This document shows positions 8,532 to 49,430 of a stretch of 64,000 bases of DNA, piece after piece. This DNA is from Candidatus Zhuqueibacterota bacterium (GTDB lineage: Bacteria; Zhuqueibacterota; Zhuqueibacteria; Oceanimicrobiales; Oceanimicrobiaceae). Position 1 is the first letter of the stretch; every line of letters begins with the position of its first letter. The stretch is taken from positions 21,963 to 85,962 of the forward strand of contig JAJDAF010000060.1 in assembly GCA_029261995.1 (NCBI GenBank), given 5' to 3'. The position numbers and the translations under genes were made by a program. A model generated the notes under the pieces. The model saw only the letters and a program-made list of their open reading frames with translations, was not told where the DNA came from and did no database searches.

Positions 8532-8532
8532 A

Positions 8533-10743: not shown

Positions 10744-10756
10744 CGGAAGTTGCTTT

Positions 10757-10797
10757 CGCGGCCTTGACATGATAATTGTTATTATGTCAAGGCCGCG
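10757..10797. terminator. 19-bp imperfect inverted repeat (hairpin) downstream of paralog 1
   Basis: CGCGGCCTTGACATGATAA ttg TTATTATGTCAAGGCCGCG, with one mismatch. Confidence 0.45.
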
Positions 10798-14113: not shown

Positions 14114-14537
14114 AGTTTGTAGGCTGAGCATGTTTCAGGAGCGCAATTTTCTGCTTGATATGCCCAATAGACTTTTCTATCTTCTTGTCACTATCTGAAG
14201 CGTCTCCAACTAAACCATTCATGACCAGCCGAATTCGGGTGGGAGAGGATGCAGGCTCCTAATTGACATCCACGACAGAAGCAGACGTTGCTATGGCAGG
14301 CCTAACGCAGAATGCAAAGCTGATCCGTGCCATAGTCGCTCACCACGGAGATGCCATGCTCGACACATGGTTATTGGACCGTAACATGTCCAGTAACAAA
14401 GGCGACAGCGTTCCGAATTGCGAGAGCAATTCATTGATTTGAAGGTCGTTAGGACAATCTGTGACGACTGGTTTATCGGACATGATGTGGCCGAAATCTT
14501 GGATCCAATAAACTAGGTTGGGTTACTAGGACAACTT

Positions 14538-14999: not shown

Positions 15000-15099
15000 C
15001 AAAATGCGCAGGAAAAAATACTCGCTGTGGCTCGCATTTTTTCTGTGAGCACGACTAGTTGCTACGGTTCTAACATGTGGCTCAAGCACGAACTGTAAT

Positions 15100-16182: not shown

Positions 16183-16768
16183 CCAATTCCGCAGTAATAT
16201 TCAAAATATCCGAGCACTGTCATCCACAATTGTTGCTGTAAATAGAATGACGACAGAAGTGGTTGACCTCTCTGATATACTTAGAGCCGAGATTGTATTG
16301 GCGGTTAGTGCTCTGGATCATTTTGTTCATGAATTTGTTAGATTAGGAATGCTTGATATTTATTCGAGATCTCGAAGGCAGACAGATTCGTATCTAAGGT
16401 TTCAGGTGGCTTTGAGAGCAGCACATTTAGGTGAAACCAATCCGGCAGAGAATGGGTGGCTTGACGAATGCATCCGAGAACGTCATTCATGGCAGAGTTT
16501 TCAGGAACCCGACAAGATCGCAGATGCAATAAGATTGGTTTCCGAAATTAGGTTGTGGGATTCAGTTGGCCGAGAACTGGATAAAACGGGAGCTGATGTC
16601 AAGGCAGCACTGAAATTGATTATAGATAGAAGGAATAAGATTGCCCACGAGGCGGATATGGATCCTACCAATCCTGGTGTTCGCTGGCCAATCAACCAGA
16701 GGATGACAGAACAAGCAGTCAACAACGTTGAAGCGATAGTTGAAGCGATATACAAGGTAGCATCCTAG
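16166..16768 (+). CDS. putative HEPN-superfamily protein (Rx4H motif)
   Basis: 200 aa. Overlaps the ParA gene end by 17 nt, which suggests translational coupling. It carries DRRNKIAHE, matching the HEPN Rx4-6H RNase signature, and is predicted to be all-helical. Confidence 0.45.
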   Translation: MQQAIDQFRSNIQNIRALSSTIVAVNRMTTEVVDLSDILRAEIVLAVSALDHFVHEFVRLGMLDIYSRSRRQTDSYLRFQVALRAAHLGETNPAENGWLDECIRERHSWQSFQEPDKIADAIRLVSEIRLWDSVGRELDKTGADVKAALKLIIDRRNKIAHEADMDPTNPGVRWPINQRMTEQAVNNVEAIVEAIYKVAS

Positions 16769-17012
16769 ATACTCGCTAACATTGGCTCGCATGATGAATC
16801 GGGGAATGCCTTCCCCAGAGCGAGCCAGATGTTCAACCACGAGCCGGACGATCATTCGATTCTCAAGGTTGAACTCTTGCAGCGGGAGATAGCTTGGCGG
16901 GGTGAGCATGTGGGCAGCAAATCTTCCACGAGCAGGAGACAATGTCTAGATCAAAATGCGGAACATCGAATAACTGTCAGGTTACTAAAGAAACATTATG
17001 GATTCATAGACT

Positions 17013-17726
17013 ATGTCAAGTAGTGGGTACGAAATTCTCGCTAGCGAATACTACGATCATGCTCATATTACTTCAAGAAATTTTGATTCTGCAACAGCGA
17101 ACTTCTGCAAAGAGTTTGCCTTTCCTTTAATCCCGAAAGGTGTTATCGTTGAACTAGGTGCCGGAAGAGGGCGAACCCGTGAATATTGCCGCATTCCAGA
17201 ATCGCGCATAATTCAAACTGATTTATCTTATGGAATGCTGCAACTCAATTCTCGCGAGAATTCTATTGCTAGAGTGCAATGTAGCGCCCTCGAACTACCA
17301 TTTAAGCACTCATCGATGTCTGCCATTACGGCTTTTCTTTACGATCCCTATAATAGGCCAAAACTATATTCAGAAATGCATCGTGTCATGAAAACTGAAG
17401 GAATCTTCATAGGCACGCTGCCCCATCATGTTTGGGGAGAAAGTCTCAGAAATCTTAAGGGCATAGATGCAAACAAAGCTAGAATAATCCGCTTTACCAC
17501 AGACTCAAAGGAATTCGTTGAGATGGATTCCTACTTGATGAACGAAAATGAGATTGCAGATTCATTTCATTCTGCGGGGTTCGGCAAGATTGAATTTCAG
17601 GATTTGTTTTTGCCGAGAGAAATAAAGTGCTCTGATATTTCGCCACACATAGCAGAGGCAGCAAGCTCACAGGAGATATCGCCATATGAATTGCCAATCG
17701 TCACATTTATTCTAGGCTGGAAATGA
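17013..17726 (+). CDS. class I SAM-dependent methyltransferase
   Basis: VIVELGAGRGRT (motif I, glycine-rich loop). 237 aa. Confidence 0.7.
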   Translation: MSSSGYEILASEYYDHAHITSRNFDSATANFCKEFAFPLIPKGVIVELGAGRGRTREYCRIPESRIIQTDLSYGMLQLNSRENSIARVQCSALELPFKHSSMSAITAFLYDPYNRPKLYSEMHRVMKTEGIFIGTLPHHVWGESLRNLKGIDANKARIIRFTTDSKEFVEMDSYLMNENEIADSFHSAGFGKIEFQDLFLPREIKCSDISPHIAEAASSQEISPYELPIVTFILGWK

Positions 17727-17727
17727 A

Positions 17728-18366
17728 ATGAAGAAGAAATACTTGATTTTCTGGGCAACTGAGTTCGCAAGCCTAACAGCGATTTCTATCATCCTTGCAA
17801 AAATCGATTGGTCAATGTACTGGATAGTAATACCAGTTGTCCTTATTCTCACCATGAAAGTGCTCGAGTATCGGTTCTTTCTAGATCAAAAACAAGCCTC
17901 AATTCAATCACAGCTCAAGCTCCTTGTAAAACTTTTGAGATCAGAGGGTGTGTCCAGCATTAGATGCACCTATCACGTTCCGATATCAGACTCGAAATTC
18001 CTTCAGGTATTTGACTATATTCCCAACGGTGGCGGTGGAAAGAGAAAATTCAACACAACTAGAGGAATTATCGCAAAAGCTTTCCAAGAAAAGACCCCCC
18101 TTGTTGAGAATTTTGATGGCAGCCACGACTTTCAGAAGCGCATGGTTACACAGTACAATTACAGTACCTCCGAACTAGGACATAGAACTCCAGATCGCAG
18201 GTCGTATATTTGCTACCCAGTTATTGATGAAAACCACTATGTAATGGGAATGATATATTGTGATTCATCAGTGCCCCATACTTTTGAATTGGATGGAGGT
18301 GGCAATCAGAAAATTTCAAAGATGATAATTGACGCTAGCGAAGTTATTCGCGACAACATGATATAG
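17728..18366 (+). CDS. 2TM membrane protein with a C-terminal globular (possibly GAF-like) domain
   Basis: Starts 1 nt after the methyltransferase stop. Two N-terminal TM helices, then an amphipathic helix, then about 130 aa containing GGGKRKF...YICYPVIDENHYVMGMIYCDSS. Confidence 0.45.
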   Translation: MKKKYLIFWATEFASLTAISIILAKIDWSMYWIVIPVVLILTMKVLEYRFFLDQKQASIQSQLKLLVKLLRSEGVSSIRCTYHVPISDSKFLQVFDYIPNGGGGKRKFNTTRGIIAKAFQEKTPLVENFDGSHDFQKRMVTQYNYSTSELGHRTPDRRSYICYPVIDENHYVMGMIYCDSSVPHTFELDGGGNQKISKMIIDASEVIRDNMI

Positions 18367-19475
18367 TGTGTCTAACTAGCAGCTCAACAGACGGCTGGCC
18401 CGGAAATGATGAAAAGACTTATGTGGTATCGGTAAGAAGCGACGTTCCACGCAAGATGTCGACATTGAAAAAACTTCTCATTGGACTAGGCGCCGTTGCA
18501 ATTATAACACTTATCGCCTTTTCCTGGTTTGTCATGTCCTTGTTTTCTGAGCAGGATATGTCAGAAGTTCCTGACCACTATCCGTTTAAATCGGCAGAGG
18601 CCAAAGAACAATATCTGCACCATTATGACAAGAGAGCGCGAGCGTGGCCTGTTGCTTCGGAATCCAGGGTCGTGGAAACATCTTATGGCCGGACTTTTGT
18701 TCGCATCAGCGGTCCGGTAAATGCGCCACCTTTGGTCTTGCTACCTTCTACCAGCGCTTCATCTCTTATCTGGATACCCAATATTCAGACACTATCCGTT
18801 CACTACAGAGTCTATGCTGTTGACAACATTTACGACTTTGGCCGCAGTGTCAATACTCGCAACATCAAGAGTTCTGATGACATGACGCACTGGCTCGATG
18901 AGCTGTTTACTGCGCTTACTCTCGGAGACAGTATCAATCTTATGGGGCTTTCATTTGGTGGCTGGCTGACAAGCCAATACACACTTGCTCATCCAACCAG
19001 GCTCAACAAGGTCGTATGGCTCGCCCCGGTGGCGACAATCCATGATATTCCGGCAGAGTGGGCGTGGCGTGGCATGCTCTCCGCGTTGCCCTATCGTTAC
19101 TTCATGACGAAATTCATGGTAGAATGGCTTTTTGAAGATTTGTGCAAGAAGACTGATGAGCATAGTCTGGAACAGATAGATGATTTGGTTGATGATGCCA
19201 TGCTCGGCCTCAAATGTTTTAAATTCCGGATGCCAATCACACCCTCTGTCTTGACGGATAATGAATTACAGAGCATCAAGGCGCCAACGCTCTTCTTGGT
19301 CGGTGAAAATGAGAAACTCTATCCCGCAAAAAAAGCTGTTGAACGTCTCAACACATTGGCGCCGCAGATACAAACGGAAATCATACCGAATGCCGGCCAC
19401 GACTTAACAATCGTTCAGGCAGAATTGGTAAATCGAAGGGTTCTTGATTTCCTGATGACAACTAATCCAGAATAA
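18366..19475 (+). CDS. membrane-anchored alpha/beta-fold hydrolase
   Basis: GLSFGGW nucleophile elbow (GxSxG). TM anchor LLIGLGAVAIITLIAF. The probable true start is the M at 18456. Confidence 0.7.
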   Translation: MCLTSSSTDGWPGNDEKTYVVSVRSDVPRKMSTLKKLLIGLGAVAIITLIAFSWFVMSLFSEQDMSEVPDHYPFKSAEAKEQYLHHYDKRARAWPVASESRVVETSYGRTFVRISGPVNAPPLVLLPSTSASSLIWIPNIQTLSVHYRVYAVDNIYDFGRSVNTRNIKSSDDMTHWLDELFTALTLGDSINLMGLSFGGWLTSQYTLAHPTRLNKVVWLAPVATIHDIPAEWAWRGMLSALPYRYFMTKFMVEWLFEDLCKKTDEHSLEQIDDLVDDAMLGLKCFKFRMPITPSVLTDNELQSIKAPTLFLVGENEKLYPAKKAVERLNTLAPQIQTEIIPNAGHDLTIVQAELVNRRVLDFLMTTNPE

Positions 19476-23122: not shown

Positions 23123-26100
23123 GTGGATTACGTCATGCAATTTCTTCAATTGCCAGTTTTTATACTGGTCGCGACCCTTACCGGCGGCGGGCTTTTCGCT
23201 CAAGAGACCGTCAGCGACACCTCTCGATTTATTTCCAGCCACGACGCGCAAGTAAAGTTCTCGAGTCCGAGTAAGAATTACGGAATCAAGACGACCGCCA
23301 AGGTCGAGCGCGGTGTTTTCAACACTTACCTGAAATTTGAAGTTGCGGGTCTGAGCGCTCCGGTTCAAAATGCTGTAGTCAGACTATTTGCCGTGGATGG
23401 CAGCGATGACGGTGGCGCCATCCACCTGGTCTCCAATAACCATTCCGGTACAGTGACGCCCTGGGATGAACGGATTTTGACCTGGGCCAACGCCCCGGCA
23501 ATCGAGACACCCGCTTTGAGCGCCGCAGGCAGGGTTCTGGCCGCCACCTTCGTAGATTTCGATGTCACTGCCGCGGTTACGGGAGACGGTATCTTCAGCT
23601 TCGCCATTCAGAATGGCAGTACCAACCGTGTCGAATACAACACCCGCGAAGGCGCCACTCCGCCTGAGCTGATTATCCTGACCGGCACCGATGCCAGCAA
23701 CACCAAACCTGTGGCCCGGAATGACACCTACCTGCTGGACAGTCCGGCGTTGACGCTGCTGCAGCCTGGCGTGCTCGGCAACGACGTCGATGTGGATTCC
23801 GACTTATTGACAGCCACCGTGATTACCCCGCCGCTGCTGGGCAGCCTGACTCTGAATTCGGACGGCTCATTTTCTTACTTGCCGCACCCCGGTTTCCTTG
23901 GAACCGTGAAGTTCTCCTACCAGGCGGCTGACGGTCGCGGGGGCGTCGATCAGGCCATCGTTGCCATCACGGTCACCGACAACGGTTTCGCACAAGCCGG
24001 CATCGTCGAGCCGGTGCTGAGCACTGCGCCGACTGCCGGCAATGCAGATGATCCCGCAATCTGGATTCATCCGACCGAGCCGGAAAGAAGCATCATCGTT
24101 GGCACCGACAAAGTTGCAGGCATCTATGTTTGGAATATGGCCGGGGAGATTCTGCAGGTTCTGCCGCAAACCGGCCGCTCCAACAATATCGAAGTCCGAT
24201 CAGATGTGGAGTTTGCCGGCCAGCGGGTGACGCTGGTGGCCGCGAACCTGCGCGACGCCGGCAAACTTGCTGTGTTCAAACTCAACCCGGACTACACCGG
24301 CTCGAACGTCTTGCTGCCGCTTGCGGACGCCAGCAGCGACAGCAACAACATCCAACCGGACACCTACGGATTCGGGCTTTATCGCCGCCCAGCGGACGCC
24401 GCGTTGTTCGTGTTCGACCGGCCTAAAAATGGCGGCGCCATTCGCCAATATCGAATCTCCGACAACGGAACGGCCTCCGGAGTTTTTGTCACGCCTGTGC
24501 GCGATCTCAACTACGCCGGCAAAACCGCGGAAGGGTTTGTCGCTGACGATGATTTGGGTTTTATTTATATCTCCGAAGAGGGCAAAGGCATTCACAAATA
24601 CCACGCGGACCCGACCATGAACAGCGATGCCATCGCTTTGTTCGCTTTGGAAGACGGAGTCGTAGCCGACCGTGAAGGCGTTGGCCTCTACAAATGCGAC
24701 GACGGCACCGGCTACCTGCTGCTCTCCAGCCAAGGCAATTCGACGGTTAAGATCTATGAACGCCAGGGCAGCAATCGCTTCCTGAAGACGATCATCCCAG
24801 CGGCGGCTAGTGGAGATTATTGGCTCGGTGCCGATGGCCTGGAAGTCACTTCCTCCACCGCTGGCCCATCCTTTCCAAAAGGCTTCGTGGCCGTGCACGA
24901 CGAAGCCGGTAGCCGATTCCACCTTTACGATTGGGAAGCTTTCGCCGGCGCCGATTTGAACATCTGTGTCGATGGTGGTGGCGGTCACCAGAATTTGCCG
25001 CCGGTGGCTGCAACTGACACGGTCCGCACGAGAGAGAACACGCCGGTGTCGGCAGACGTTCTTGCCAATGACCGCGATCCGGATGGACAGCTTGTTCCGG
25101 CTACCATCGCGATTACGACACAGCCCGGCCACGGAACGGCGAGCATCAACAGCGCTGACAGTCGCATCATTTATTCTCCGCATGCCGGCTTCAGCGGCAC
25201 GGATAGTTTCACCTACTCTATCAAAGATGAGCGGGGCGCTGTTTCAACTCCGGCCCGTGTGACGGCTATCGTGACCGAAAAGACCGGCGAAAGCGGCGTG
25301 CTGCAAATTGCAGCAAACCAGGACGCCTACGTGAAATCGACGCGAGCCACCAGAAACTATGGTAACCGAACGCTTCTCAAAGTGGACCATCCCGAGTTTC
25401 ACGCCTATTTGAAATTCACAGTTGAAGGCATCACCGGACCGGTTGAGAGTGCCATAATCAGAATGGTGGTGCTCAACGGCAGTATCGATGGCGGCTCTAT
25501 CTACTCGGTGTCCAACAATTTTCAGGGCACAAACGAACCGTGGACGGAATCGCTTGTCTCGTTCAACAACGCGCCATTGCTTGGCCCGTCAGCCCTCAGT
25601 TCCGTTGGCGCGGTCGCAGTTGGGCAGACCGTTGAGTTTGACGTGACAGCGGCTATTTCAGGGGACGGTACTTTCAGCTTTGCTGTAAAGAATCAGTCCA
25701 GCGATAAGGCTGAGTACAGCTCCAAAGACGGCGATTCCCCGCCCGAGCTCATCATTCGGATGGGAGACAGCGGTGGTGGCGGAGACAATGTACGACCCGT
25801 AGCAGTTGATGACGATGCAACCACAAACAAGGGCGTCGCCGTCAAGGTTCCTGTTCTCAGCAATGACCACGATCCTGACGGCAGGCTGGTGGTTTCGACG
25901 GTCACAATTTCGACATCACCGCTCAACGGCAACGTCAGTGTCGCTTCGGCCACAGGCATTGTGACTTACACGCCAAACCCCGGCCTGGTTGGCCGCGACC
26001 GCTTTCTCTACACCGTGAAAGATGATGACGGCGCCGTTTCGGATCCCGCGACGGTTTTGGTGACGGTGACAACCGGCGGAGCGAAGGAGCTGGTTTTTGC

Positions 26101-26899
26101 GCCGACGCATGATGCCCAGGTTAAAGCTTCGCGGCCAACGCGGAACTACGGTGGCAAAGAGACTGTCAACGTGGAAGCCGAGTCCTACCGCGCCTATTTT
26201 AAATTTGTGGTTATCGGCGTCAGCGGTCAGATGCAGAGTGCCCGCTTGCGGCTGTATGCAGTCGGCGCCAGTGTGGATGGCGGGCAAGCGTTTGCCGCTT
26301 CAAATACCTATGCCAGCAGCCCCACAGTATGGGAAGAAAGCGGCATCAACTGGACAAATTCACCGCTGCTGGCGGGCCAGGCATTGAGTTCGGCCGGCGT
26401 CGTTGCTTCCGAGACACACGTGGAGTTTGACGTCAAGTCGGCGATTTCAGGCGATGGGGTTTATACTTTTGCACTCAGCAGCGCATCTGCCGATAAGGTC
26501 GCGTACAGCACGAAAGAGGGACTAGCCGCGCCAGAACTCATTCTTGAAGTCGCTTCCGCCGTCGCCAGTGATGAGACCTTGACGTTAGCGGCAAATGTGG
26601 GTGATGAGCCACCGCTTCCTGACCGCATGTCGCTCAGTCAGAATTACCCGAACCCATTCAATCTGGAGACGCGCATCGAGTATGCCCTGCCGCAGGCAAC
26701 GCGAGTCCGGTTAACGCTGTACAACCTGTTGGGCCAGGAGATCCACCTGCTGGTGGATGAGATTCAGGAGCCCGGTTTCAAACGAGTCTTTTGGAATGGC
26801 CGTGACCAGCGTGGTTTCGAAATGGCATCGGGCATCTATTTCTTGAGATTGCAGGCCGGGCGGCAAACGCTGACTCGCAAAGTTTCTTTGCAGAAATAG
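23123..26899 (+). CDS. large secreted multidomain protein: beta-propeller phytase-like domain, cadherin-like repeats, three repeated binding-type modules, T9SS C-terminal sorting domain
   Basis: NADDPAIWIHPTEPERSIIVGTDKVAGIYVW matches the Bacillus 3-phytase beta-propeller signature (DDPAIW). Cadherin-like GVLGNDVDVDSD and VLANDRDPDG. Three copies of an about 120-aa module of the form AQVK-S-P-RNYG...YLKF-V-G...VVRL...VDGS-DGG. C-terminal LSQNYPNPFNLETRIEY...GIYFLRLQAG is a T9SS CTD. Confidence 0.7.
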   Translation: MDYVMQFLQLPVFILVATLTGGGLFAQETVSDTSRFISSHDAQVKFSSPSKNYGIKTTAKVERGVFNTYLKFEVAGLSAPVQNAVVRLFAVDGSDDGGAIHLVSNNHSGTVTPWDERILTWANAPAIETPALSAAGRVLAATFVDFDVTAAVTGDGIFSFAIQNGSTNRVEYNTREGATPPELIILTGTDASNTKPVARNDTYLLDSPALTLLQPGVLGNDVDVDSDLLTATVITPPLLGSLTLNSDGSFSYLPHPGFLGTVKFSYQAADGRGGVDQAIVAITVTDNGFAQAGIVEPVLSTAPTAGNADDPAIWIHPTEPERSIIVGTDKVAGIYVWNMAGEILQVLPQTGRSNNIEVRSDVEFAGQRVTLVAANLRDAGKLAVFKLNPDYTGSNVLLPLADASSDSNNIQPDTYGFGLYRRPADAALFVFDRPKNGGAIRQYRISDNGTASGVFVTPVRDLNYAGKTAEGFVADDDLGFIYISEEGKGIHKYHADPTMNSDAIALFALEDGVVADREGVGLYKCDDGTGYLLLSSQGNSTVKIYERQGSNRFLKTIIPAAASGDYWLGADGLEVTSSTAGPSFPKGFVAVHDEAGSRFHLYDWEAFAGADLNICVDGGGGHQNLPPVAATDTVRTRENTPVSADVLANDRDPDGQLVPATIAITTQPGHGTASINSADSRIIYSPHAGFSGTDSFTYSIKDERGAVSTPARVTAIVTEKTGESGVLQIAANQDAYVKSTRATRNYGNRTLLKVDHPEFHAYLKFTVEGITGPVESAIIRMVVLNGSIDGGSIYSVSNNFQGTNEPWTESLVSFNNAPLLGPSALSSVGAVAVGQTVEFDVTAAISGDGTFSFAVKNQSSDKAEYSSKDGDSPPELIIRMGDSGGGGDNVRPVAVDDDATTNKGVAVKVPVLSNDHDPDGRLVVSTVTISTSPLNGNVSVASATGIVTYTPNPGLVGRDRFLYTVKDDDGAVSDPATVLVTVTTGGAKELVFAPTHDAQVKASRPTRNYGGKETVNVEAESYRAYFKFVVIGVSGQMQSARLRLYAVGASVDGGQAFAASNTYASSPTVWEESGINWTNSPLLAGQALSSAGVVASETHVEFDVKSAISGDGVYTFALSSASADKVAYSTKEGLAAPELILEVASAVASDETLTLAANVGDEPPLPDRMSLSQNYPNPFNLETRIEYALPQATRVRLTLYNLLGQEIHLLVDEIQEPGFKRVFWNGRDQRGFEMASGIYFLRLQAGRQTLTRKVSLQK

Positions 26900-30971: not shown

Positions 30972-31223
30972 GCTGAATTCCGGAGCTGTTTAAGAAGAAG
31001 TCAGTAAATACAAAAATTTATGGAGATGTTCAAGAAAAAATAGTGGCGGGTGTTTCAGGCCAGACCGCGCTCACGCTTGGTTCACTATTCAGACTTTGCA
31101 CCAGCCCGGTCGCCACGGCGCCATAATTGTCTTCATCACTGTTGCAATTCATTGACAGTTTCATCACGAATGTTGATATTACACATCTCTCAGAATCATT
31201 TGACCACTGTGTGAGGTAAGAGC

Positions 31224-31892
31224 ATGCATTTCCTTCTATCTTCCTGTAAATCATTGATATTCGTCATCGCAGTGCCTTGCGCTGTCCTGGGGGCAACCAA
31301 AGCGTTGCATGCTCAGCCAAGCCGGAATAGTCGCACAGATACCGCCCCGAAAGTTGGCGAAATGGCCCCCACCTTTATCCTCGAGTCTCTGGACCGCAAA
31401 AGCAAAACGGATCTCGCCAGTTACCGGGGCAAGAAACCGGTCGTACTCTTCTTCGGTAGTTACACGTGACCTCCGTTTCGTCGCCAGTTGGGCGAAATGG
31501 AAGCTATATATCAGTCATTCAAGAACATCGTCGAGTTTAGAATCGTCTACATCAGCGAAGCACACGCCGTCGATGACCGTCGCCCGGAACCGCTGGCTCA
31601 AAAGCTCAAAATCTTCGAAGCCAAAGACACCGGTCAATGTTGCACCACTGCCGAAATGATGATGAAGGAAGAGAACGTCTCGATTCCGTGTTTGATTGAT
31701 AATATGGACAATTCCATCAACACAGCCTACAACGCCCATCCTGACCGGGTCTTTCTAGTGCGCACAGATGGCCGTCTTGCGGTGGCCGCGGATCGAGGCC
31801 CCTGGGGATTCAAACCGGCGCTTGACAAGACCCTGGCCTGGCTCCGGAGTTACAAAGCGACCGGCAAAGAATCCGCGCTTCCGGAGCGTTGA
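31224..31892 (+). CDS. candidate selenoprotein, iodothyronine-deiodinase-like thioredoxin-fold protein (in-frame TGA at 31467-31469 read as Sec)
   Basis: ORFs 31224..31469 and 31488..31892 share a frame and are separated only by TGA. Reading through gives PVVLFFGSYT-U-PPFRRQL...VYISEAHAVDD. Compare the deiodinase active site FGS(C/A)TUPPF...IYIEEAHASDGW. Signal peptide at the N-terminus. Confidence 0.65.
31476..31500 (+). ncRNA. candidate bacterial SECIS hairpin
   Basis: UUUCG-UCGCC-AGUUG-GGCGA-AAUGG begins about 9 nt after the UGA, with a G in the apical loop. Weak stem. Confidence 0.3.
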
Positions 31893-32002
31893 ACTCAGGC
31901 TCAGCTAAAATACCGTTATCGCGGTATTTACTTTCCTGTCATAAAAAGTTACACTTAATTTAATACCATTCAACATTCCCAACAACTTGATGAGGAGGTT
32001 CT

Positions 32003-33109
32003 ATGTCCTGGAAAGCCTTGCTACTTTTTATTTCTCTCACTTTGCCGGTGGCCGCCTTTGGTCAGATTCAAATCACCCAGCAAAATCTGCTTGGGCAGAT
32101 TGGCACTACCCAGACCATCATTGAAGACGAACGGTTCCATATTCCAATCGATGTTGGCGAAGCCGGCGCTAATAAGGTCTGGGACTTTCGATCGACCCCC
32201 CTTGTTGACACAGTGTTCGTAGTGAATGAATTCCTCCCGCCGGGCGGGTTACCGGGCATCGAACGGTTTCCGGACGTTAACTGGGTGCAGAAGATCACTT
32301 TCCCGGATTTCCCGGATAACGAGGCCTACAACTATCTCAATGTAACGTCAGACTATCTGATCACGCGGGGTGACAGTGTAGCTTTCACCGAGCCGATTGA
32401 CACGTCCTTCGTTTTCTTTCAAAATGATACCGTGGCGCCAATGCCACTCGAATTCGGCAACATGTGGACTTCCACGGAAATTGATACGGATGGTTTTTAC
32501 CCGGACTTCGGCAACATTTCCCTTGATACGACCATTAACCACATCGACGGCTGGGGAATGGTGAGAATTCCTCTCGGAGACTTCGAGTGCCTGAGACTGC
32601 GTCAGGATATCAAGGCGGTCAACTTGACAGTTGTAGCAGGAGAAATCACGTCTAGCAACACCGACACGTGGATTCAGTATGATTGGATTTCAAAGAATGA
32701 ATTTTTTGTCGCAAGGGCGCAAAGCCAGTTTGGCAACACCAACCCGGACTTCACCGATGCAAACGGGTACGGCCTGCTACACGCAAAGAGTGGTACACCC
32801 ACAAGCGTCGAAGGAAACCCCGAGGTTCCGGAGTCCTTTGTGCTGTTTCAGAACTATCCCAATCCTTTCAACCCGGAAACCGCAATCTCATTCCAAATGC
32901 GTGAAGCAGGGCCGGTCGATCTGACCATCTTCAACGTGCTTGGGCAGCCGGTTCGGAAGCTCGTGAGCGGCTTCATGGATGCGGGAAGCCGGCAGGTGAC
33001 CTGGGACGGCACAGACAACCTGGGCCAGCGAGTCTCCTCGGGCGTGTATGTTTACCAGTTGCAATCAAGCGAACTGGTTCAAACAAAAAAAATGGTACTG
33101 CTGCAATAG
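32003..33109 (+). CDS. secreted protein with a T9SS C-terminal sorting domain
   Basis: Signal peptide. C-terminal FVLFQNYPNPFNPETAISFQ...GVYVYQLQSS. Confidence 0.6.
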   Translation: MSWKALLLFISLTLPVAAFGQIQITQQNLLGQIGTTQTIIEDERFHIPIDVGEAGANKVWDFRSTPLVDTVFVVNEFLPPGGLPGIERFPDVNWVQKITFPDFPDNEAYNYLNVTSDYLITRGDSVAFTEPIDTSFVFFQNDTVAPMPLEFGNMWTSTEIDTDGFYPDFGNISLDTTINHIDGWGMVRIPLGDFECLRLRQDIKAVNLTVVAGEITSSNTDTWIQYDWISKNEFFVARAQSQFGNTNPDFTDANGYGLLHAKSGTPTSVEGNPEVPESFVLFQNYPNPFNPETAISFQMREAGPVDLTIFNVLGQPVRKLVSGFMDAGSRQVTWDGTDNLGQRVSSGVYVYQLQSSELVQTKKMVLLQ

Positions 33110-33133
33110 AACTCAACCAACAAGGAGAACAAC

Positions 33134-33808
33134 ATGAGACGGAGTTTACCCATACTCGCCATTTCGCTGATTGCTGTTATTGTCTTTGGCAATTCGTCGT
33201 CTACCTGGGCAGGCAAAAAGCCCAAAGTCAAACGCTACAAGGAGAAGTCCGGCATCATCGAGATGATATCCACCGGCACTATGTCGGGCAAAGAAACCAT
33301 CTATTTTGACAACTGGGGCTGGCTCGAGGCCAAGTACACGGAGACCACCATCAAGGTTGCCGGGTTCACTCAAAAAACCAAACAGTTGACTTTGCTCGAC
33401 GGCGAGTGGACTTACAATATCGATCTGAATACGAACAAGGGCACGAAAATGAAAACCCCTTTGTTCGATGAACTCAACGCTTCCGCCAAGTCGAAAGGCA
33501 ACGACTTGACCGATACGGGCGAAGAAATGATGAAGCAGATGGGCGCCAGGAAAGTCGGCAAAGGCGTGATCGCAGGCAAGAACTGCGACATCTGGGAAAT
33601 CAAAGATATGGGCACGAAAACCTGGGTCTACAATGGCGTTGGTCTGAAAGTCGAAACCGGCTTTGCCGGCATGAAGATAGTGCAGGAAGCTAAGAGTGCC
33701 AAGTTCAACGTCGCGATACCAGCCGGCAAGCTTAAGTTACCGGCGAATGCGACCATCACGGAAGGCCCCGATATTTCAGACATCATGAAGGGCTTACGGC
33801 GCAAGTAA
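33134..33808 (+). CDS. hypothetical secreted protein or lipoprotein
   Basis: AAGGAGA RBS and a signal peptide. 224 aa, Lys-rich. No motif recognised. Confidence 0.5.
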   Translation: MRRSLPILAISLIAVIVFGNSSSTWAGKKPKVKRYKEKSGIIEMISTGTMSGKETIYFDNWGWLEAKYTETTIKVAGFTQKTKQLTLLDGEWTYNIDLNTNKGTKMKTPLFDELNASAKSKGNDLTDTGEEMMKQMGARKVGKGVIAGKNCDIWEIKDMGTKTWVYNGVGLKVETGFAGMKIVQEAKSAKFNVAIPAGKLKLPANATITEGPDISDIMKGLRRK

Positions 33809-33901
33809 AGCGTCACGGACCTGTGCGCTGGCGGGGTACTGCTTGTGCCAGTTGCCTGGGGGAAATAGCATTGCCAGTTTAACCCTGTCACCGAACTGAT
33901 T

Positions 33902-36112
33902 ATGGAGGCAAGAATGAGATTGTCGTGTTTTGGAGTTTTGGCGTTTGCTTTGAGTTGTCTTTTGGCACCTCAGGCCAGCGCGCAAGAGAGTGAATGGAAT
34001 TGGGTGTTCCCCGTATCGAATACCATTCTGGATGTCAAGATCCTCGATGGTAGCACGGCAATCGCCGTCGGCCGCAGTGGCACCATCCTGAAGACCAAGG
34101 ACAAGGGCACGACTTGGGAGTCCTTGAAGAGTGGCACGCGCAGAACCTTGAGGGCCGTGAGTTTTGCTGACACAGAATTCGGCATGGTTTTCGGCGACGG
34201 TGGAACGCTGCTCGTCACCCGCAACTGCGGCAAAACCTGGGAGTCGGGGGAGACGGCCTTTGGCGGCACACTTCGTGGTGGTGTGTTGACCGGGCCGGAT
34301 ATCGGCATCGCGGTGGGCGATTCCGGCGCGATTTTTCGCACCGTTGATGGCGGCACAATCTGGGACAGAATTCCGAGCCCGACAGGCCTGACCCTAAATG
34401 GCGTCTACAATTTCGGCAACTGGGCGTTCGCTGTTGGCGATTCGGGCATCGGCATCTCAAGCTCAGATTTGGGGCAAACCTGGACTCCGCTACCAATTGA
34501 CACCGACTGCCCGATTTGGGCCGGCGCCATGTTCGATACCACTGGCTGGTGGGGCGTAGGTGGCGGCGGCAAGGTTTTTCGCACCGTTGACGGCGGCACT
34601 ACCTGGAAGCCGCAGAACAGCGGCGTCCCTTTCGATCTATGGAATATTGCCCTGGACGACTCCCTTGGCGCCATCGCCATTGGCGACAGCGGAACATTTA
34701 TCACAACCACGGATGGTGGAGCGACCTGGAACTCGAATCCCCTGGATCCGCTCTGCAATAACTTTGCTCTTGCTCTGGATGACTCATTTGGCGTAGCTGC
34801 CGGCTCGCACGGCAAATTTTGGACTTCCGGGGGATTCGGGAAGCCGTTCAACCCGTTTCCGAGACCGCCGCTTTACCAATTTACTGACTTTGAGATCTTG
34901 AATCCGGATACCTTCATTGCCGTCACGATTGCTGGCGAGATTCTTTCAACGTTTAACGGCGGAATCGATTTTTCTCTCGCTCTTGCTACCAACTTCGAGC
35001 TGCAAGCGATTTGCCGTTCCGGGGAGAATGATTGGTGGGCCGCCGGCGGTACCTTCGGGGATTCCGCACGCGTTTTTCATTCTGGCGATGGCGGAGCTAC
35101 CTGGGCGCCGCAGTTTGTGCCCTCGTCTCTGAAGTTCTTCGACATCTGCTTCAAAGATTCTCTGAACGGAATGGCTGTGGGACTTCTCGGTACCATATTC
35201 TGCACCACCGATGGCGGCAAGACCTGGAGAAAAAAGAACGGCCAGACCAACGAATGGCTGCTGTCGATAGACATCGTTGATGACACAACCGCGTTCGCCG
35301 TTGGTGGCAACGGCACGATGATCCGCAGCCGAGACTTCGGCGAAACCTGGTCTCCACTTCCCAGCGGTACGTCAGAGTGGCTCACAAACGTGACATTCCT
35401 GGATGACTCTATTGGGATTGCCTGTGGTAACAACGCAACCCTTATCAGGACGGATGATGGCGGTGAAGAGTGGGATGCATTTGAACTAGACCTCGGTCGA
35501 TTCGGCGGGTTGGATCCGCCGGATTTTCAGGGCGTTTACTTCTTTGATGAGTTTGAATCGTTTCGCGAGCCGGCGCCAGCCAGGCCAGGTTCGAACAGCG
35601 GAGGCGGTAACCTGGTTGCAACTGTGGTAGGCCACCTCGGCACCATCCTGCATTCTGTAGATGGCGGCCTGACCTGGACACAGGAGGACAGCAAAACAAA
35701 TAACAGTCTGAGCGCGGTCAGTTACGCGAATGCGGAGACGGCAGTTGTTGTCGGGGATTTTGGTACGGTCTTGCGCCGCACCAGTTCAGGCCCGACGACC
35801 TCTGTGGAGTGGCAGCCGAGAGCGCAAGCCCCGCAATCGGTTGTGCTGCACCAGAATTACCCGAATCCTTTCAATCCCTCAACCACGATCCGATTTGAGT
35901 TGCGGGATGATACTGCTGTGGACCTTCGCATCTTCAATCTTCGCGGGCAACTGGTTAAGACGATTCTCAGCGACAGGTTGAATGCCGGAGCGCACAGCCG
36001 AGTCTGGGATGGCCAGGATGCCTCAGGACGGCCTGCGGCAAGCGGACTCTATATCGCGAGGTTGCGTGCGGGTGAAAATGTGACTCAACGCAAGATGCTC
36101 CTTATCAAATAG
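33902..36112 (+). CDS. BNR/Ycf48-like beta-propeller repeat protein with a T9SS C-terminal sorting domain
   Basis: Many repeats of the form G-x-I/V-x-x-T-x-D-G-G-x-T-W (TKDKGTTWES, TVDGGTIWD, TVDGGTTWKP, TTDGGATWNS, SGDGGATWAP, TTDGGKTWRK, SRDFGETWSP, RTDDGGEEWD, SVDGGLTWTQ). C-terminal HQNYPNPFNPSTTIRFEL...GLYIARLRAG. Confidence 0.7.
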   Translation: MEARMRLSCFGVLAFALSCLLAPQASAQESEWNWVFPVSNTILDVKILDGSTAIAVGRSGTILKTKDKGTTWESLKSGTRRTLRAVSFADTEFGMVFGDGGTLLVTRNCGKTWESGETAFGGTLRGGVLTGPDIGIAVGDSGAIFRTVDGGTIWDRIPSPTGLTLNGVYNFGNWAFAVGDSGIGISSSDLGQTWTPLPIDTDCPIWAGAMFDTTGWWGVGGGGKVFRTVDGGTTWKPQNSGVPFDLWNIALDDSLGAIAIGDSGTFITTTDGGATWNSNPLDPLCNNFALALDDSFGVAAGSHGKFWTSGGFGKPFNPFPRPPLYQFTDFEILNPDTFIAVTIAGEILSTFNGGIDFSLALATNFELQAICRSGENDWWAAGGTFGDSARVFHSGDGGATWAPQFVPSSLKFFDICFKDSLNGMAVGLLGTIFCTTDGGKTWRKKNGQTNEWLLSIDIVDDTTAFAVGGNGTMIRSRDFGETWSPLPSGTSEWLTNVTFLDDSIGIACGNNATLIRTDDGGEEWDAFELDLGRFGGLDPPDFQGVYFFDEFESFREPAPARPGSNSGGGNLVATVVGHLGTILHSVDGGLTWTQEDSKTNNSLSAVSYANAETAVVVGDFGTVLRRTSSGPTTSVEWQPRAQAPQSVVLHQNYPNPFNPSTTIRFELRDDTAVDLRIFNLRGQLVKTILSDRLNAGAHSRVWDGQDASGRPAASGLYIARLRAGENVTQRKMLLIK

Positions 36113-36127
36113 GGCAAACGGTTATCG

Positions 36128-36182
36128 AGCGTCCCCCGCCAGTCTCCCGGGGGGATCCGCTCGCTATTTCCGGATTCTTTTT
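36128..36182 (+). terminator. candidate rho-independent terminator
   Basis: TCCCCCGCC agtctc CCGGGGGGA stem, followed by a T-rich tract. Confidence 0.4.
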
Positions 36183-36256
36183 AGTCTCGACATCTTGTTG
36201 CCGTAGCCATTCAGATTTCAGTTTTGTCCATTTTTAATATCACGCAGGAGGTTGTT

Positions 36257-37330
36257 ATGAACAGATGGTACACCTGTTTCACGTCGGTGCTGGTGTTCTC
36301 ACTCGGTATATGTGCAACTACACACGTCTCTGCACAAACCACGGCTTACGGTATTGACGCCAGTAGTTTCCCGGACATAGGATTTTCATCTGTGCCGATT
36401 CCCACGGCAGATGCCGTTACCTCCATTGGCGCCACGAGCGCAAATGTTGCGGGTGGCGATTTCGGACCAGACAGCCTCTTTTACGGAAGGGTTGACAACG
36501 CCCTGGTCACCATCAGCCTGGACGATGGTAGCGCAACGACAGTGGCGCAGATTACCGGTGTTGCCGGAGGCCAAACTATCATCGGCATGGGGTACGACCA
36601 GACCGGTGGCGCCATGTATCTTGCCACCACGAATCTCTCTTCGGCAGGGTCGGAACTTTACACTATCGACCTGTCAACAGCCGTCGCGACGAGAGTGGGC
36701 GCGATAACCAACGCATCTTTTGTGCTGGCCATTGCCGTGGATCCCGCCGGTCAGATTTATGCGTTCGATGAGACGGATGACAACTTGGTCTCAGTGGATG
36801 GCGGCACCGCGGCCGGCACCATCGTCGGGCCGCTCACGGTTCCGTTCGTAGCCCAGGACGCGGATTTTGATGCCAGCAGCGGAATCCTGTACTGGACATT
36901 CTTCTCAGGCGGTAGTGGCAGACTCGCGACCGTCGATGTCACGACTGCTGTGGCAACTACCGTGACCACCTGGTCGGCGGATTTCATCGCGTTTGCGATT
37001 CTGGGAGAAGGGCCGCCAACCAGCGTTAGGGGCAGGAGTAGAACCCGGCCTGAGAGTATTTCATTGGCTCAGAATTTTCCCAATCCTTTCAATCCCGAAA
37101 CTGTCATTCAGTATCAGTTGGACCAAGCAGCCCAAGTCGAGCTGGCGATTTTTAATCTCCTGGGAGACCCAATCCGTACCTTGGTAAATGAAAAGAGCAG
37201 TCGCGGTGCGCACCAGGTCCGTTGGGATGGTTTGGATGACTCCGGACACCAAGCTGCAAGCGGGGTCTATTTCTATCGACTCAAAGCCGGGTCAGCGACT
37301 TTGAGCCGGAGGATGCTGTTGACAAGGTAA
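36257..37330 (+). CDS. secreted beta-propeller-like protein with a T9SS C-terminal sorting domain
   Basis: Signal peptide MNRWYTCFTSVLVFSLGICATTHVSA. C-terminal LAQNFPNPFNPETVIQYQL...GVYFYRLKAG. Confidence 0.6.
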   Translation: MNRWYTCFTSVLVFSLGICATTHVSAQTTAYGIDASSFPDIGFSSVPIPTADAVTSIGATSANVAGGDFGPDSLFYGRVDNALVTISLDDGSATTVAQITGVAGGQTIIGMGYDQTGGAMYLATTNLSSAGSELYTIDLSTAVATRVGAITNASFVLAIAVDPAGQIYAFDETDDNLVSVDGGTAAGTIVGPLTVPFVAQDADFDASSGILYWTFFSGGSGRLATVDVTTAVATTVTTWSADFIAFAILGEGPPTSVRGRSRTRPESISLAQNFPNPFNPETVIQYQLDQAAQVELAIFNLLGDPIRTLVNEKSSRGAHQVRWDGLDDSGHQAASGVYFYRLKAGSATLSRRMLLTR

Positions 37331-45514: not shown

Positions 45515-48082
45515 TCACAGGCACTCTCCGGGAATCCATCTATTCCCGCTCGCTCGTAGGCCGTTGCAGACACGCGACAGGCATTGGTGGTGGTGCGAGC
45601 AAATATCTCCTCTTCTGCCGTTGTTGTTTGGCATGCAGCGATTGGTTCTGGAGGTTCCGTTACCGGCATCACAGTAGCCTGAGGCACATTGATGATTCTG
45701 TGAGCAATTGTGTCCGAGAGCGAATTTGCTGCTGCACTTTCCAGGAATCCATCGATTGCCGCTCGCGCGGAGTCCCTCACAGTTGCCGGAAGTACATTGA
45801 TTGTCATGCGAGCAGATATCCCCTGATCTACCATTCCTGTTGGGCATGCAGCGATCGGTCCTGGAGGTTCCGTTGCCGGCGTCACAGTAGCCCGAAGCAC
45901 ATTGATGATTTTGGGAGCAATTGTGTCCGAGAGCGAATTTGTTGCCGCACCTCCCAGGTATCCATTGTCCGCCACTCGCTCGTAACCCTTCACAGATGCC
46001 TGAAGTACATTGGTTGTCATGCGAGCAGATATCTCCTATTCTGCCATTTCGGTTGGGCATACAGAGGCTGGTTTTGGAGGTACCATCGCCGCGGTCGCAA
46101 TAGCCGGAACTGCATTGGCTGTTGCTAAAGCAGTACATGCCAAGGGGCTTCGTGCTGCTGTTGCTGCACTGGCCTGGAATCCAATTCTTCCCGTCGCTGT
46201 GGGGCCTTAGGCCTGCACAATTATGGGACGCGCATTGGTCGTCATGTGAGCATATATCGCCTGGTCTACCGTTATTGTTTGGCATGCACCTGTTCGTTTT
46301 GGATGTTCCGTCGCCCGCGTCACAGTAGCCGGATTTACACTCTGTGTTAGCGAAACAGGTGTCGCCCAATGCCTTTGGTGCCATGCCATGTGCTGCAAAG
46401 ATATTGTGCGCCTGAGCGCTTTCTTCCGGGTCTGCGTGCTCACCGAGCCATTGCAGGATTGTGTAAGCTAGGTCATCGATCCTATGTCCCGTGTTCTTTG
46501 CAAGTGCATAGGAAAAAGCATTAACCATAGACTTGTTGGCGTTCGCTGGACTTGACCACACGCTGTCCCAAAGGGTTTTATGGAACGCTTGGGCGAGGGG
46601 TAATCCCATCCAGTAGTCGGTGGCCCCACACTGGTTATTCCACTGGTCAGTGCGAGAAAGGTAAAAGGATGAACTTGGCACGCCACTTACTACCGGGTTC
46701 TGTGTGACATAGTAGCCATATCTTGCGTCGTGCAAGAAAACGCTCATGAACATCTCTGCGATGGCTTCCTGAAATGAACGTTGGTCACATTTGGCCGGAT
46801 CGAAACCAATACTAAAGCCAGGTACAAAGGAAATGTCCATGTGGCCAAAGACGTAACCTGCCGCATAGTGTCCAAACTCATGAGCAACGAGATGGTCGGT
46901 AGTTTCGCCGGCTTTGATGTGAATCTTAGGCCCTTCATGTGGCCAAGCGCGCATGCATCCATCTTGTGAGCTTGTGATGGGAACACAGGCTACGCTAAAT
47001 GCACCTTGCGTGAGAACGTTCGGGCCAACGCGATCATTCGCATGTTTGATGGGCCCACCGGTCCAGCCGGGTGGTGTGATCCACAGGTGATTTTTCGCGT
47101 ACTCTCTCGCTTCTTTAGTCCAGTAGTAGACCGTCTGTTCTTCAAATTGAGCCTTGTTATCTGCATCTGCAACCGTGAAGTCCGGGACTGTACATGTTGT
47201 GCTGGGGTGGCGTTGTGCCGGCCCTCGATCGCCCGCAATCTCATCAATCGGCCAATTTGTTGGGTTCGCAGGATTATACTCAAGACGATACTCGCATCCA
47301 TGCGCCCCCTCACGGACGCTTATCTGTGTTTGACCAAGCTGCGATGTACCATCAGCGTCCTTATAAAGGATGTCGATGGTCACCACACCTGGCTCTGTCT
47401 CCTGCGTGGACTCTACCGGAGCAGTTCTCATCCACAACCTATTCCTGTTGTCAGCAGCAAAGAGCCCATTGTCGAGCGCAGTGAACCCAACCACTCCGTT
47501 TGCCTGATCTATCTGTTTCCACGGAACGTCATACGGTACGGGCAATCGCATCCACAGTTTATTGTCTTTCGTCGCCGCAAATAGCTTCCCGTTAGCGGCA
47601 GCCATTCCGACCGTGTTATTTGCATGACCTATGTGCTGCCATGATACGTCACTTGGCACGGGCTCACGCATCCACAATCTATTATCACTCGTCGCCGCAA
47701 ACAGCTTGCTGCCAAGGGCAGCCATTGCGACCACATTATTTGCGTGACCTATGTGCTGCCATGCAACGTTACGTGGCACGGGCTCACGCATCCACAATCT
47801 ATTGTCTTTCGTCGCCGCAAACAGCTTCCCATTAACGGCCGCCATTCCGACGATATTGTTTGCATGACCTATGTACTGCCATCGAACGTTGTGGGGCACG
47901 GACTCACGCATCCAAAGCTGATTGTTTTTCGTTGCCGCAAACAGCTTCCCATTGACGGCTGCCATTGCGACCACATTACTTGCACGACCTATCTGCTGCC
48001 ATTGGGCGTGAGCAGAACCACACAATGAGAGAAAAACACCTATACTGAGAACAGCTATCACAATGACTATTCTCCGGTCCAT
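45515..48082 (-). CDS. secreted protein with tectonin-like repeats, an HExxH zinc metallopeptidase-like domain and four C-terminal Cys-rich repeats
   Basis: Six repeats of about 45 aa of the form W(Q/K)xIGxANxVVxMAAxxGKLFAATxxNxLWMRxPVP, a tectonin/tachylectin-like pattern. VAHEFGHYAAGYVFGH zinc motif. Four repeats of about 70 aa rich in C...C.SGYCD.G.GTS.T..CMPN.NG..GDICSHD.QC.S..C.GLR. Confidence 0.6.
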   Translation of the reverse strand: MDRRIVIVIAVLSIGVFLSLCGSAHAQWQQIGRASNVVAMAAVNGKLFAATKNNQLWMRESVPHNVRWQYIGHANNIVGMAAVNGKLFAATKDNRLWMREPVPRNVAWQHIGHANNVVAMAALGSKLFAATSDNRLWMREPVPSDVSWQHIGHANNTVGMAAANGKLFAATKDNKLWMRLPVPYDVPWKQIDQANGVVGFTALDNGLFAADNRNRLWMRTAPVESTQETEPGVVTIDILYKDADGTSQLGQTQISVREGAHGCEYRLEYNPANPTNWPIDEIAGDRGPAQRHPSTTCTVPDFTVADADNKAQFEEQTVYYWTKEAREYAKNHLWITPPGWTGGPIKHANDRVGPNVLTQGAFSVACVPITSSQDGCMRAWPHEGPKIHIKAGETTDHLVAHEFGHYAAGYVFGHMDISFVPGFSIGFDPAKCDQRSFQEAIAEMFMSVFLHDARYGYYVTQNPVVSGVPSSSFYLSRTDQWNNQCGATDYWMGLPLAQAFHKTLWDSVWSSPANANKSMVNAFSYALAKNTGHRIDDLAYTILQWLGEHADPEESAQAHNIFAAHGMAPKALGDTCFANTECKSGYCDAGDGTSKTNRCMPNNNGRPGDICSHDDQCASHNCAGLRPHSDGKNWIPGQCSNSSTKPLGMYCFSNSQCSSGYCDRGDGTSKTSLCMPNRNGRIGDICSHDNQCTSGICEGLRASGGQWIPGRCGNKFALGHNCSQNHQCASGYCDAGNGTSRTDRCMPNRNGRSGDICSHDNQCTSGNCEGLRASGNRWIPGKCSSKFALGHNCSQNHQCASGYCDAGNGTSRTNRCMPNNNGRRGDICSHHHQCLSRVCNGLRASGNRWIPGECL

Positions 48083-48253
48083 GCGATTCTCCTTTGCGAT
48101 TTGATACAGAGCGACAGTGATCTTTGAAAACCGTTTCAACTCTATTTAGGAACTCCATCGAGGTATTGCTGCATTGGAGAGCAAATCAGGCTTCATCTCT
48201 CGGACTTTATTGTCCGCGAGCGTGCGAAGGAGCGAGATCCCCAGAGGTGAGTT

Positions 48254-49418: not shown

Positions 49419-49430
49419 GGCGCGTCCTCC

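Follow-up and report, generated by a model that had tools for sequence, protein, structure and literature searches.

Does an in-frame TGA within a deiodinase-like motif end one short gene and precede another, or does it specify selenocysteine (Sec) inside a single gene? The question is raised by positions 31224-31892 of a 64,000-nucleotide stretch of DNA from Candidatus Zhuqueibacterota bacterium (contig JAJDAF010000060.1), the whole of which is here called the window. On the forward strand, one frame runs from an ATG at 31224 to a TGA stop at 31890-31892 and comprises 223 codons with one internal stop. This internal TGA (31467-31469) is codon 82, lies in the context KKPVVLFFGSYT-TGA-PPFRRQLGEMEAIYQSFKNIVEFRIVYISEAHAVDD, and interrupts the motif FGSYT-TGA-PPF; past it, the same frame continues with PPFRRQL and later reads VYISEAHAVDD. 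The list of open reading frames (ORFs) contains two entries in this frame, one of 81 amino acids (aa) at 31224-31469 and one of 134 aa at 31488-31892, and public gene callers divide the locus into products of 81 and 131 aa. An earlier interpretation made from the DNA letters without database searches (the sequence-only reading) had proposed a deiodinase-like selenoprotein here, and its coordinates, in-frame TGA, and motif proved exact on direct reading and translation. Judged from sequence comparisons, 31224-31892 is probably one gene that encodes an exported selenoprotein of about 22 kDa of the bacterial deiodinase-like family (PF00837), with the in-frame TGA most likely encoding Sec. We place the probability that it is a genuine Sec-encoding gene of the deiodinase family at about 0.88.

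The locus encodes a deiodinase-family protein

Profile and structure searches were carried out with the 222-residue window protein, in which cysteine (Cys) was placed at codon 82. PF00837 (T4_deiodinase) was matched with an E value of 1.6e-23 and 83.7 bits, compared to a Pfam gathering score of 27, in one stretch that covers residues 42-199 and profile positions 73-227 of 237 and crosses codon 82. AhpC-TSA (PF00578; 36.9 bits) and Redoxin (29.7 bits) were also matched above their cutoffs, and these secondary matches reflect the shared thioredoxin fold. Assignment to the peroxiredoxin family (PF00578) was rejected, as its score lies about 47 bits under that of PF00837 and the active site is the deiodinase motif FGSYT-U-PPF. 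The NCBIfam model NF038285 (deiodinase_rel), which describes a 347-aa architecture, scored 132.3 bits, below its cutoff of 250, and was likewise set aside; only model positions 174-334 were matched, and the window protein has no counterpart to the N-terminal half of that architecture.

The closest solved structures by sequence were mouse DIO2 (9h48; E = 4e-17) and DIO3 (4tr3; E = 1e-14). An AlphaFold model of the nearest full-length relative, the Cys homolog P0002, had a predicted local distance difference test (pLDDT) score of 85, rising above 95 over the domain. Its best matches in the PDB were again DIO3 (4tr3) and DIO2 (9h48), with template modelling (TM) scores of 0.76-0.78 at 28-29% identity, and its next-best structural neighbours were ResA, DsbE, and Bcp. 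The Pfam score together with the top rank of DIO2 and DIO3, both by sequence and by this structural proxy, bears out the deiodinase-family membership claimed at first.

We also compared the window protein residue by residue with 23 bacterial sequences and the animal enzymes. S79, T81, U82, P83, P84, F85, Y109, E112, and H114 are invariant in the 23 bacterial sequences and identical in Dio2 and Dio3. Among them, S79, T81, U82, Y109, E112, and H114 correspond to Dio2 Ser127, Thr129, Sec130, Tyr157, Glu160, and His162, which, together with His182, have been proposed as a catalytic and proton-relay network (PMC11592359); six of these seven Dio2 residues are therefore identical in the window protein. 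C156 aligns with the distal Cys205 of Dio2, which forms a selenenylsulfide intermediate (PMC11592359), and is conserved in 17/23 sequences, while C140 aligns with Dio2 Cys189 (12/23). R191 aligns with Dio3 Arg275, a proposed clamp for the substrate carboxylate, and is conserved in 18/23. At the N terminus, Kyte-Doolittle means over 11 residues reach 2.0-3.0 for residues 7-15 and fall below 0 after residue 22, and most homologs have similar N termini. This signal-peptide-like profile agrees with the signal peptide described in the sequence-only reading and makes export of the window protein likely.

The TGA codon is conserved at the catalytic position

A scan for genomic homologs, with one genome per species, identified 17 loci that encode relatives 35-66% identical to the window protein. 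They come from Planctomycetota, Phycisphaerae, Pirellulaceae, a metagenome-assembled genome (MAG) of Limisphaerales (Verrucomicrobiota), a 'Deltaproteobacteria' MAG, and unclassified MAGs. TGA occupies the identical codon and frame in 17/17 loci, the frame is open and conserved to either side of it, and the motif reads FGSYT-TGA-PPF throughout, except for one FGSFT-TGA-GPF. Five full-length homologs (P0002, P0010, P0017, P0022, and P0107) read FGSYTCPPF instead, with TGC in the DNA. Codon 82 thus aligns with Sec130 of Dio2, Sec170 of Dio3, and the Cys of the five bacterial Cys forms, and the alignment that had been suggested as a check places the TGA on the catalytic Sec of the animal enzymes.

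The division made by gene callers corresponds exactly to a locus with two genes, in which the TGA is a true stop that separates an 81-aa secreted peptide from a protein of 131-134 aa with its own start. Met and TTG starts are present 7-10 codons past the TGA, and 114 of the 120 closest database proteins (P0001-P0120) are called in the same way, as truncated products that begin 14-23 residues before Y(I/V)xEAH, where the first Met past the TGA site lies. However, a true stop would sever the thioredoxin fold at the active-site loop, whereas a single Pfam stretch spans the junction and the full-length Cys forms carry their Cys exactly at codon 82. In 18/18 loci, window included, one part directly continues the other without a change of frame. 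Moreover, conservation is no lower upstream than downstream: mean identity to the window protein is 60% over the 40 residues before the TGA and 51% over the 40 residues after it. Conservation of the upstream flank indicates that the upstream ORF is coding and is part of the same protein. A consensus scan found no promoter-like or terminator-like site between the two halves. The only promoter-like site that it found lies upstream of the entire read-through ORF, not of its second half, and is weak (one site compared to a shuffle mean of 1.1); with a terminator-like hairpin past the stop (Table 1), also a weak pattern match, it encloses the whole read-through ORF. Two separate genes are thus very improbable.

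Truncated calls extend well beyond the closest relatives. An exhaustive search of 1.84 billion cluster representatives with a limit of E ≤ 1e-3 detected 1,018 clusters; among the best 150 representatives (P0243-P0390), about 120 (approximately 80%) start at the same post-TGA point. The predominance of such calls indicates that Sec forms dominate the family and that automatic annotation splits them systematically. Some of the truncated database homologs carry long C-terminal extensions with TPR, PF22316, or PF11376 domains.

An in-frame stop could also arise from a sequencing or assembly error for TGC or TGT, which the sequence-only reading had named as a way in which its proposal might fail, or from reassignment of TGA to Trp or Gly across the genome. 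Nothing specific favours either explanation, and the concern is generic to any in-frame stop in a metagenome assembly. The gene, including the TGA, recurs without a single mismatch in the assemblies of two separate runs (SRR15505515 and SRR15505513), is also found in a 109-kb NCBI contig, and has its TGA in common with the 17 independent genomes. As for reassignment, the 33 long ORFs of the window end in TGA (14), TAG (12), or TAA (7), and a scan across the window found no other credible TGA read-through gene. With TGA as the commonest ordinary stop and no second read-through gene, the genetic code is the standard one; in addition, homologs align Cys with this codon and neither Trp nor Gly. 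Error and reassignment are effectively refuted.

A SECIS-like hairpin follows the TGA

Bacterial Sec insertion sequence (SECIS) elements lie within the ORF, and the sequence-only reading had advised a search for one just past the TGA. A SECIS-like hairpin is present there (Table 1), with a 6-bp lower stem, a 5-bp upper stem, a folding energy of -12.9 kcal/mol, a spacing of 16 nt from the UGA, and a G at loop position 2; the unconstrained minimum free energy (MFE) alternative is an 11-bp stem. Published criteria for bacterial SECIS elements are a loop of 3-9 nt, an upper stem of 4-16 bp, a G in the first two loop positions, a spacing of 16-37 nt, and an MFE of ≤ -7.5 kcal/mol (PMC13188914, Fig. 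2). These criteria accommodate 17 of the 18 Sec forms, including the window element. The loop starts 16-17 nt past the UGA in 13/18 Sec forms and is typically A-GGU-U or AGUU.

Taken alone, the window hairpin is weakly distinguished from dinucleotide shuffles (MFE z of -1.46), and its significance therefore rests on comparative data, which consisted of a covariation count in the majority register and register-free tests. Compared to synonymous recodings, the Sec forms fold more stably (mean z of -0.94, with 16/18 negative), in contrast to four Cys forms (mean z of +0.25), and the natural Sec-form sequences lie, on average, within the top 18% of the recodings made from them. In an ungapped alignment of the 18 sequences, 73% of the cells of the majority-register helix are paired, compared to 54% in shuffles, and double-sided changes number 22 compared to 10. 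The covariation score over the 18 loci is 0.49, against 0.22 in shuffles (none of 500 reached the observed value) and 0.11-0.22 in slid registers, for a structure that was derived from the same sequences and a set in which several loci are closely related. Stem sequences vary across loci (GCGCC/GGCGC, GAAUC/GAUUC, GAGUC/GGCUC, and UCGGUC/GAUCGA), and at several of them the encoded amino acids change in concert while pairing is preserved. These data support a conserved, covarying hairpin directly after the TGA.

Rfam gave nothing at gathering thresholds in the whole window and two meaningless sub-threshold matches (E ≤ 10) within 31100-32000; no bacterial SECIS family was among the matches in either span. 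Among the Cys forms, the TGC-containing L020 keeps a SECIS-like hairpin, GGCGCC-AGGUU-GGCGCG, at the usual distance (L020:1013-1060), which looks like a fossil SECIS left after a recent conversion of Sec to Cys. The Cys forms L021 and L022 have lost the hairpin.

Sec machinery and weighing of the Sec assignment

In the Sec-form loci L010 and L011, selB and selA adjoin the deiodinase-like gene divergently (6317-11936), and the Sec-form gene is followed by a conserved 378-aa AhpC/TSA-Redoxin protein. In L017 (99-8133), a Pyr_redox_2-SelD fusion is followed divergently by selA, a gene resembling those of transglutaminases, selB, and the deiodinase-like gene in its Sec form. The selB-selA adjacency is kept at the Cys-form loci L020-L023. 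These sel-linked genes form a clade separate from that of the window protein, and no conserved gene neighbourhood was found for the window's own clade; the AhpC/TSA-Redoxin protein is a conserved neighbour in clade B. A literature search found no published report that deiodinase-like genes are linked to sel clusters. As a weaker and novel reading, the recurrent selA-selB linkage, retained even by Cys forms, may point to a role in selenium handling itself, not mere co-inheritance.

For the window, the same machinery bears on whether the gene could be a relic, that is, a Sec-form gene inherited by a host in which the Sec machinery is absent or lost and which does not translate it productively. 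The sequence-only reading took the gene to imply that the genome carries selABCD. Neither selA, selB, selD, nor tRNA-Sec was found in the 64-kb window or in its flanks (7 kb of 3' flank and 2.4 kb of 5' flank, together approximately 9.5 kb from overlapping assemblies), about 73 kb in all. ARAGORN detected neither tRNA nor tRNA-Sec genes, whether in the window or at the 18 related loci; tblastn of authentic SelA and SelB sequences against the window gave no match, nor did a search for SelD, SelA, and SelB motifs. The [NiFe] hydrogenase encoded in the window, whose large subunit ends in ...DPCLACAVH, is also of the Cys type. However, about 73 kb is a small fraction of a genome, and linkage of sel genes to each selenoprotein gene is not the rule. 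The ORF is intact on both sides of the TGA, the hairpin is intact at the -12.9 kcal/mol given above, and the closest relatives (61-66% identity) have the same arrangement. Loss of the machinery normally leads to a change from Sec to Cys or to decay, neither of which is seen. A relic is thus improbable, if less so than two separate genes.

Besides the negative search for sel genes, several observations count against a functional Sec-encoding deiodinase-family gene. The structural model is that of P0002, a Cys homolog 48% identical to the window protein. The bacterial SECIS criteria are permissive, as they also admit about 51% of the sequences obtained when the same peptides are synonymously recoded, and the hairpin of the window is placed only within the top 12% of its recodings. 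Conservation of the hairpin is due in part to the conserved peptide PPFxxQ(V/L)G that it encodes. A different hairpin register is used at L008, L012, L014, L015, and L016, and the hairpin of L009 violates the spacing rule; because of the five loci in another register, there is no single consensus for the 18 loci, and RNAalifold returned a weak consensus of only five pairs. Of the residues that support catalysis in Dio2, His182 is replaced by A133 in the window protein (His in 8/23 bacterial sequences) and Trp167 by R119. A literature search found no biochemical characterisation of any bacterial member, and didA of Dictyostelium, the sole non-animal homolog tested genetically, is not the dechlorinase of the differentiation-inducing factor (DIF): its knockout left DIF dechlorination unaffected (PMC3205185).

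Proposed mechanism and possible chemistry

If the gene is translated as one selenoprotein, the hairpin would recruit SelB with Sec-tRNA(Sec) at the UGA, and Sec would be inserted as residue 82 in place of termination. The product would be exported by the Sec pathway and cleaved near ALHA|QP, and the mature protein would be an enzyme of the thioredoxin/peroxiredoxin fold. Located within the FGSYT-U-PPF loop, where helix α1 begins, Sec82 would be backed by the hydrogen-bond network of animal deiodinases (S79, T81, Y109, E112, and H114). By analogy with deiodinases and peroxiredoxins, its selenolate may attack a small extracytoplasmic substrate at an electrophilic atom. In this sketch, we lean slightly toward the halogen of an aryl halide, i.e., reductive dehalogenation, with the oxygen of a peroxide as the main alternative; what favours this choice is that deiodinase-specific residues and the Arg275 equivalent are retained and that Sec forms dominate over Cys forms. 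The resulting Se-X or Se-OH intermediate could be resolved by Cys156 (the Dio2 Cys205 equivalent) or by Cys140, and the selenenylsulfide so formed would be reduced by an extracytoplasmic thiol-reductant system. A candidate partner in the sel-linked clade is the conserved neighbouring AhpC/TSA-Redoxin protein.

The same gene model may instead serve an exported peroxiredoxin-like peroxidase or thiol-disulfide oxidoreductase and not a dehalogenase, with Sec82 reducing peroxides or disulfides and a Cys resolving the selenenic acid. The AhpC-TSA and Redoxin matches above their cutoffs, the next-best structural neighbours ResA, DsbE, and Bcp, and the AhpC/TSA-Redoxin neighbour in clade B are in keeping with this function. 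DIO enzymes themselves have been described as peroxiredoxin-like (PMC11592359), and the authors who first reported bacterial members proposed a redox role, thyroid hormones not being expected in bacteria (PMC1088965). On the other hand, the window protein keeps the deiodinase-specific edge of the YIxEAH insertion and the Arg275 equivalent, and it has neither CxxC nor UxxC but U-P-P-F. Sec forms strongly outnumber Cys forms here, unlike in typical peroxiredoxin families, where Cys forms dominate; the Global Ocean Sampling (GOS) counts for Sec and Cys forms are 22 and 21. We regard this function as a serious competitor, somewhat short of even odds.

Provided that the gene is a genuine Sec-encoding member, peroxidase or other thiol-selenol redox chemistry, argued by analogy, comes close to an even chance. 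Dehalogenase chemistry, also by analogy, is a tentative assignment below that level, and chemistry of another kind is rather doubtful. A broader proposal is that the family consists of exported, selenium-dependent reductive dehalogenases of natural iodinated or brominated phenolics, which use the halogen-abstraction mechanism of deiodinases and whose activity would be ancestral to that of the animal enzymes. The invariant S/T/U/Y/E/H network, the Arg275 equivalent, the strong preference for Sec, and the export signals are consistent with this proposal and do not prove it; we consider the proposal in this full form unlikely.

Relation to known families

In 2005, Zhang, Fomenko, and Gladyshev described bacterial deiodinase-like proteins in Sec and Cys forms, accompanied by bacterial SECIS elements; they found four Sec and six Cys sequences in the Sargasso Sea metagenome and proposed a redox function (PMC1088965). 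The GOS survey of 2008 counted 22 Sec and 21 Cys sequences (PMC2398784), an EF-hand fusion of a deiodinase-like protein has been noted (PMC9402790), deiodinase-like selenoproteins appear in reviews (PMC9312934 and PMC13188914), and NCBI already names some members 'deiodinase-like protein'. The window gene shares with this family the PF00837 domain, the in-frame UGA for Sec, Cys homologs at the same position, and, directly downstream, a SECIS hairpin whose small apical loop contains a G. The known members are mainly from environmental and marine bacteria, their function is presumed to be redox, and the window gene does not differ from them in kind. The emphasis that the sequence-only reading placed on a Sec-containing secreted member was overstated, given that Sec and Cys members of bacteria have been known since 2005 (PMC1088965). 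The family and its Sec, Cys, and SECIS features are thus those of the literature since that year, and the window gene is a new, mis-annotated member. One discrepancy concerns the motif, which the reviews give as 'UxxC' (PMC9312934 and PMC13188914), whereas the 23 bacterial sequences analysed here read U-P-P-F, with one U-G-P-F; the 2008 GOS table lists no motif (PMC2398784). The 'UxxC' of the reviews is either a table error or a subfamily outside the present sample.

Animal DIO1-3 (4tr3 and 9h48) share with the window protein the Pfam family, the predicted fold, the FGSxT-U-PPF loop, and six catalytic residues, and equivalents of the distal Cys (Dio2 C205) and of Dio3 Arg275 are mostly shared as well. 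However, the animal genes use a eukaryotic SECIS in the 3' untranslated region, whereas the window gene has a bacterial in-ORF SECIS-like hairpin that gives no Rfam SECIS match. The animal enzymes have an N-terminal membrane anchor, whereas the window protein has a cleavable-looking signal peptide. A133 and R119 stand in for His182 and Trp167, and the residue at position -2 is Tyr in place of Cys or Ala. Thyroid hormones, the substrates of the animal enzymes, are not expected to be those of a bacterial protein. Because of the bacterial SECIS, the lack of a membrane anchor, and the two unconserved relay and loop residues, the window protein is not a member of the strict animal DIO functional class. 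With peroxiredoxins of the AhpC-TSA type and with ResA/TlpA-type proteins, it has in common a predicted thioredoxin fold with an N-terminal β-hairpin, a nucleophile at the N terminus of helix α1, and a probable extracytoplasmic location; unlike them, it lacks CxxC and PxxxTxxC and carries the deiodinase insertion YIxEAH.

As Sec forms are split in annotation, databases under-report both the family and its true architecture. The gene also marks its host as a likely user of Sec. With a catalytic network that is almost intact and a predicted export signal, the family, as the bacterial counterpart of the thyroid-hormone deiodinases, is a good target for experiments, and establishing whether its activity is dehalogenation or peroxide/thiol redox chemistry would clarify the origin of the animal enzymes.

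Features of the locus and of the rest of the window

Table 1. Positions of the selenoprotein gene and its associated elements in the window
Feature	Position	Strand	Description and basis
Promoter-like site	31152..31180	+	TTGACA-17 nt-GATATT; consensus scan, 10/12
Shine-Dalgarno-like GAGG	31213..31216	+	7 nt before ATG 31224; inferred from sequence read
Full selenoprotein ORF (probable)	31224..31892	+	222 residues including Sec82, stop TGA 31890-31892; single frame
Signal-peptide-like N terminus, residues 1-30	31224..31313	+	K9, hydrophobic core at about 10-24, ALHA|QP
Deiodinase-type thioredoxin-fold domain, residues 42-199	31347..31820	+	PF00837; DIO2/DIO3 structure matches
Proposed Sec codon, UGA 82	31467..31469	+	Alignment with Sec of Dio2/Dio3 and Cys of bacterial forms
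SECIS-like hairpin	31472..31501	+	Lower stem 31472-31477/31496-31501, 3-nt bulge, upper stem 31481-31485/31491-31495, apical loop AGUUG 31486-31490
Terminator-like hairpin	31908..31929	+	16 nt past stop; 9-bp stem, T-containing tail; weak pattern match, consensus scan

Directly downstream of the selenoprotein gene, 32003-37330 (+) encodes secreted proteins with the C-terminal sorting domains FlgD_ig/Por_Secre_tail of type IX secretion, among them a BNR/Sortilin-repeat protein and a DUF4394 protein. Upstream, a 1,258-aa protein with cadherin and phytase domains is encoded at 23123-26899 (+). The hydrogenase mentioned above belongs to a [NiFe] operon at 48732-52303 (-) for a small subunit, a large subunit, and a cytochrome b; its C-terminal ending marks the large subunit as Cys type and not [NiFeSe], and its closest named homologs come from candidate division KSB1, the sole taxonomic clue in the window and a tentative sign of a KSB1/FCB-type host.

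Near the start of the window, long ORFs without a family match at 380-5045 (e.g., 2508-4430 on the minus strand, 640 aa) were considered as unusual genes and rejected as antisense shadows, an artefact of choosing the longest ORF. A glycerol-kinase-like gene (glpK-like, FGGY) lies at 1872-3362 (+) and a glycerol-3-phosphate-dehydrogenase-like gene (glpD-like, DAO/DAO_C) at 3453-5030 (+). Tandem paralogues of about 590 aa, highly similar over their full length, occupy 8977-10743 and 11180-12961 (+); each has a membrane segment at its N terminus and, after it, a long region of conservation, and a 108-aa ORF lies between them. From 14000 to 18400, the fraction of G and C drops to 0.43-0.44, compared to a window mean of 0.53. 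This stretch encodes a ParA-like ATPase with a MFNHKGGVSKTT motif (15100-16182) and several proteins of no obvious function, and it may be a mobile or defence island. Two further secreted proteins are rich in repeats. The first, of 874 aa (45515-48139, -), has about five repeats of the type NN(V/T)V(A/G)MAA..GKLFAAT..N.LWMR followed by repeated Cys-rich modules, and the second, of 260 aa (62898-63680, +), consists of calcium-binding-like DADGDG(V/I)ND repeats.

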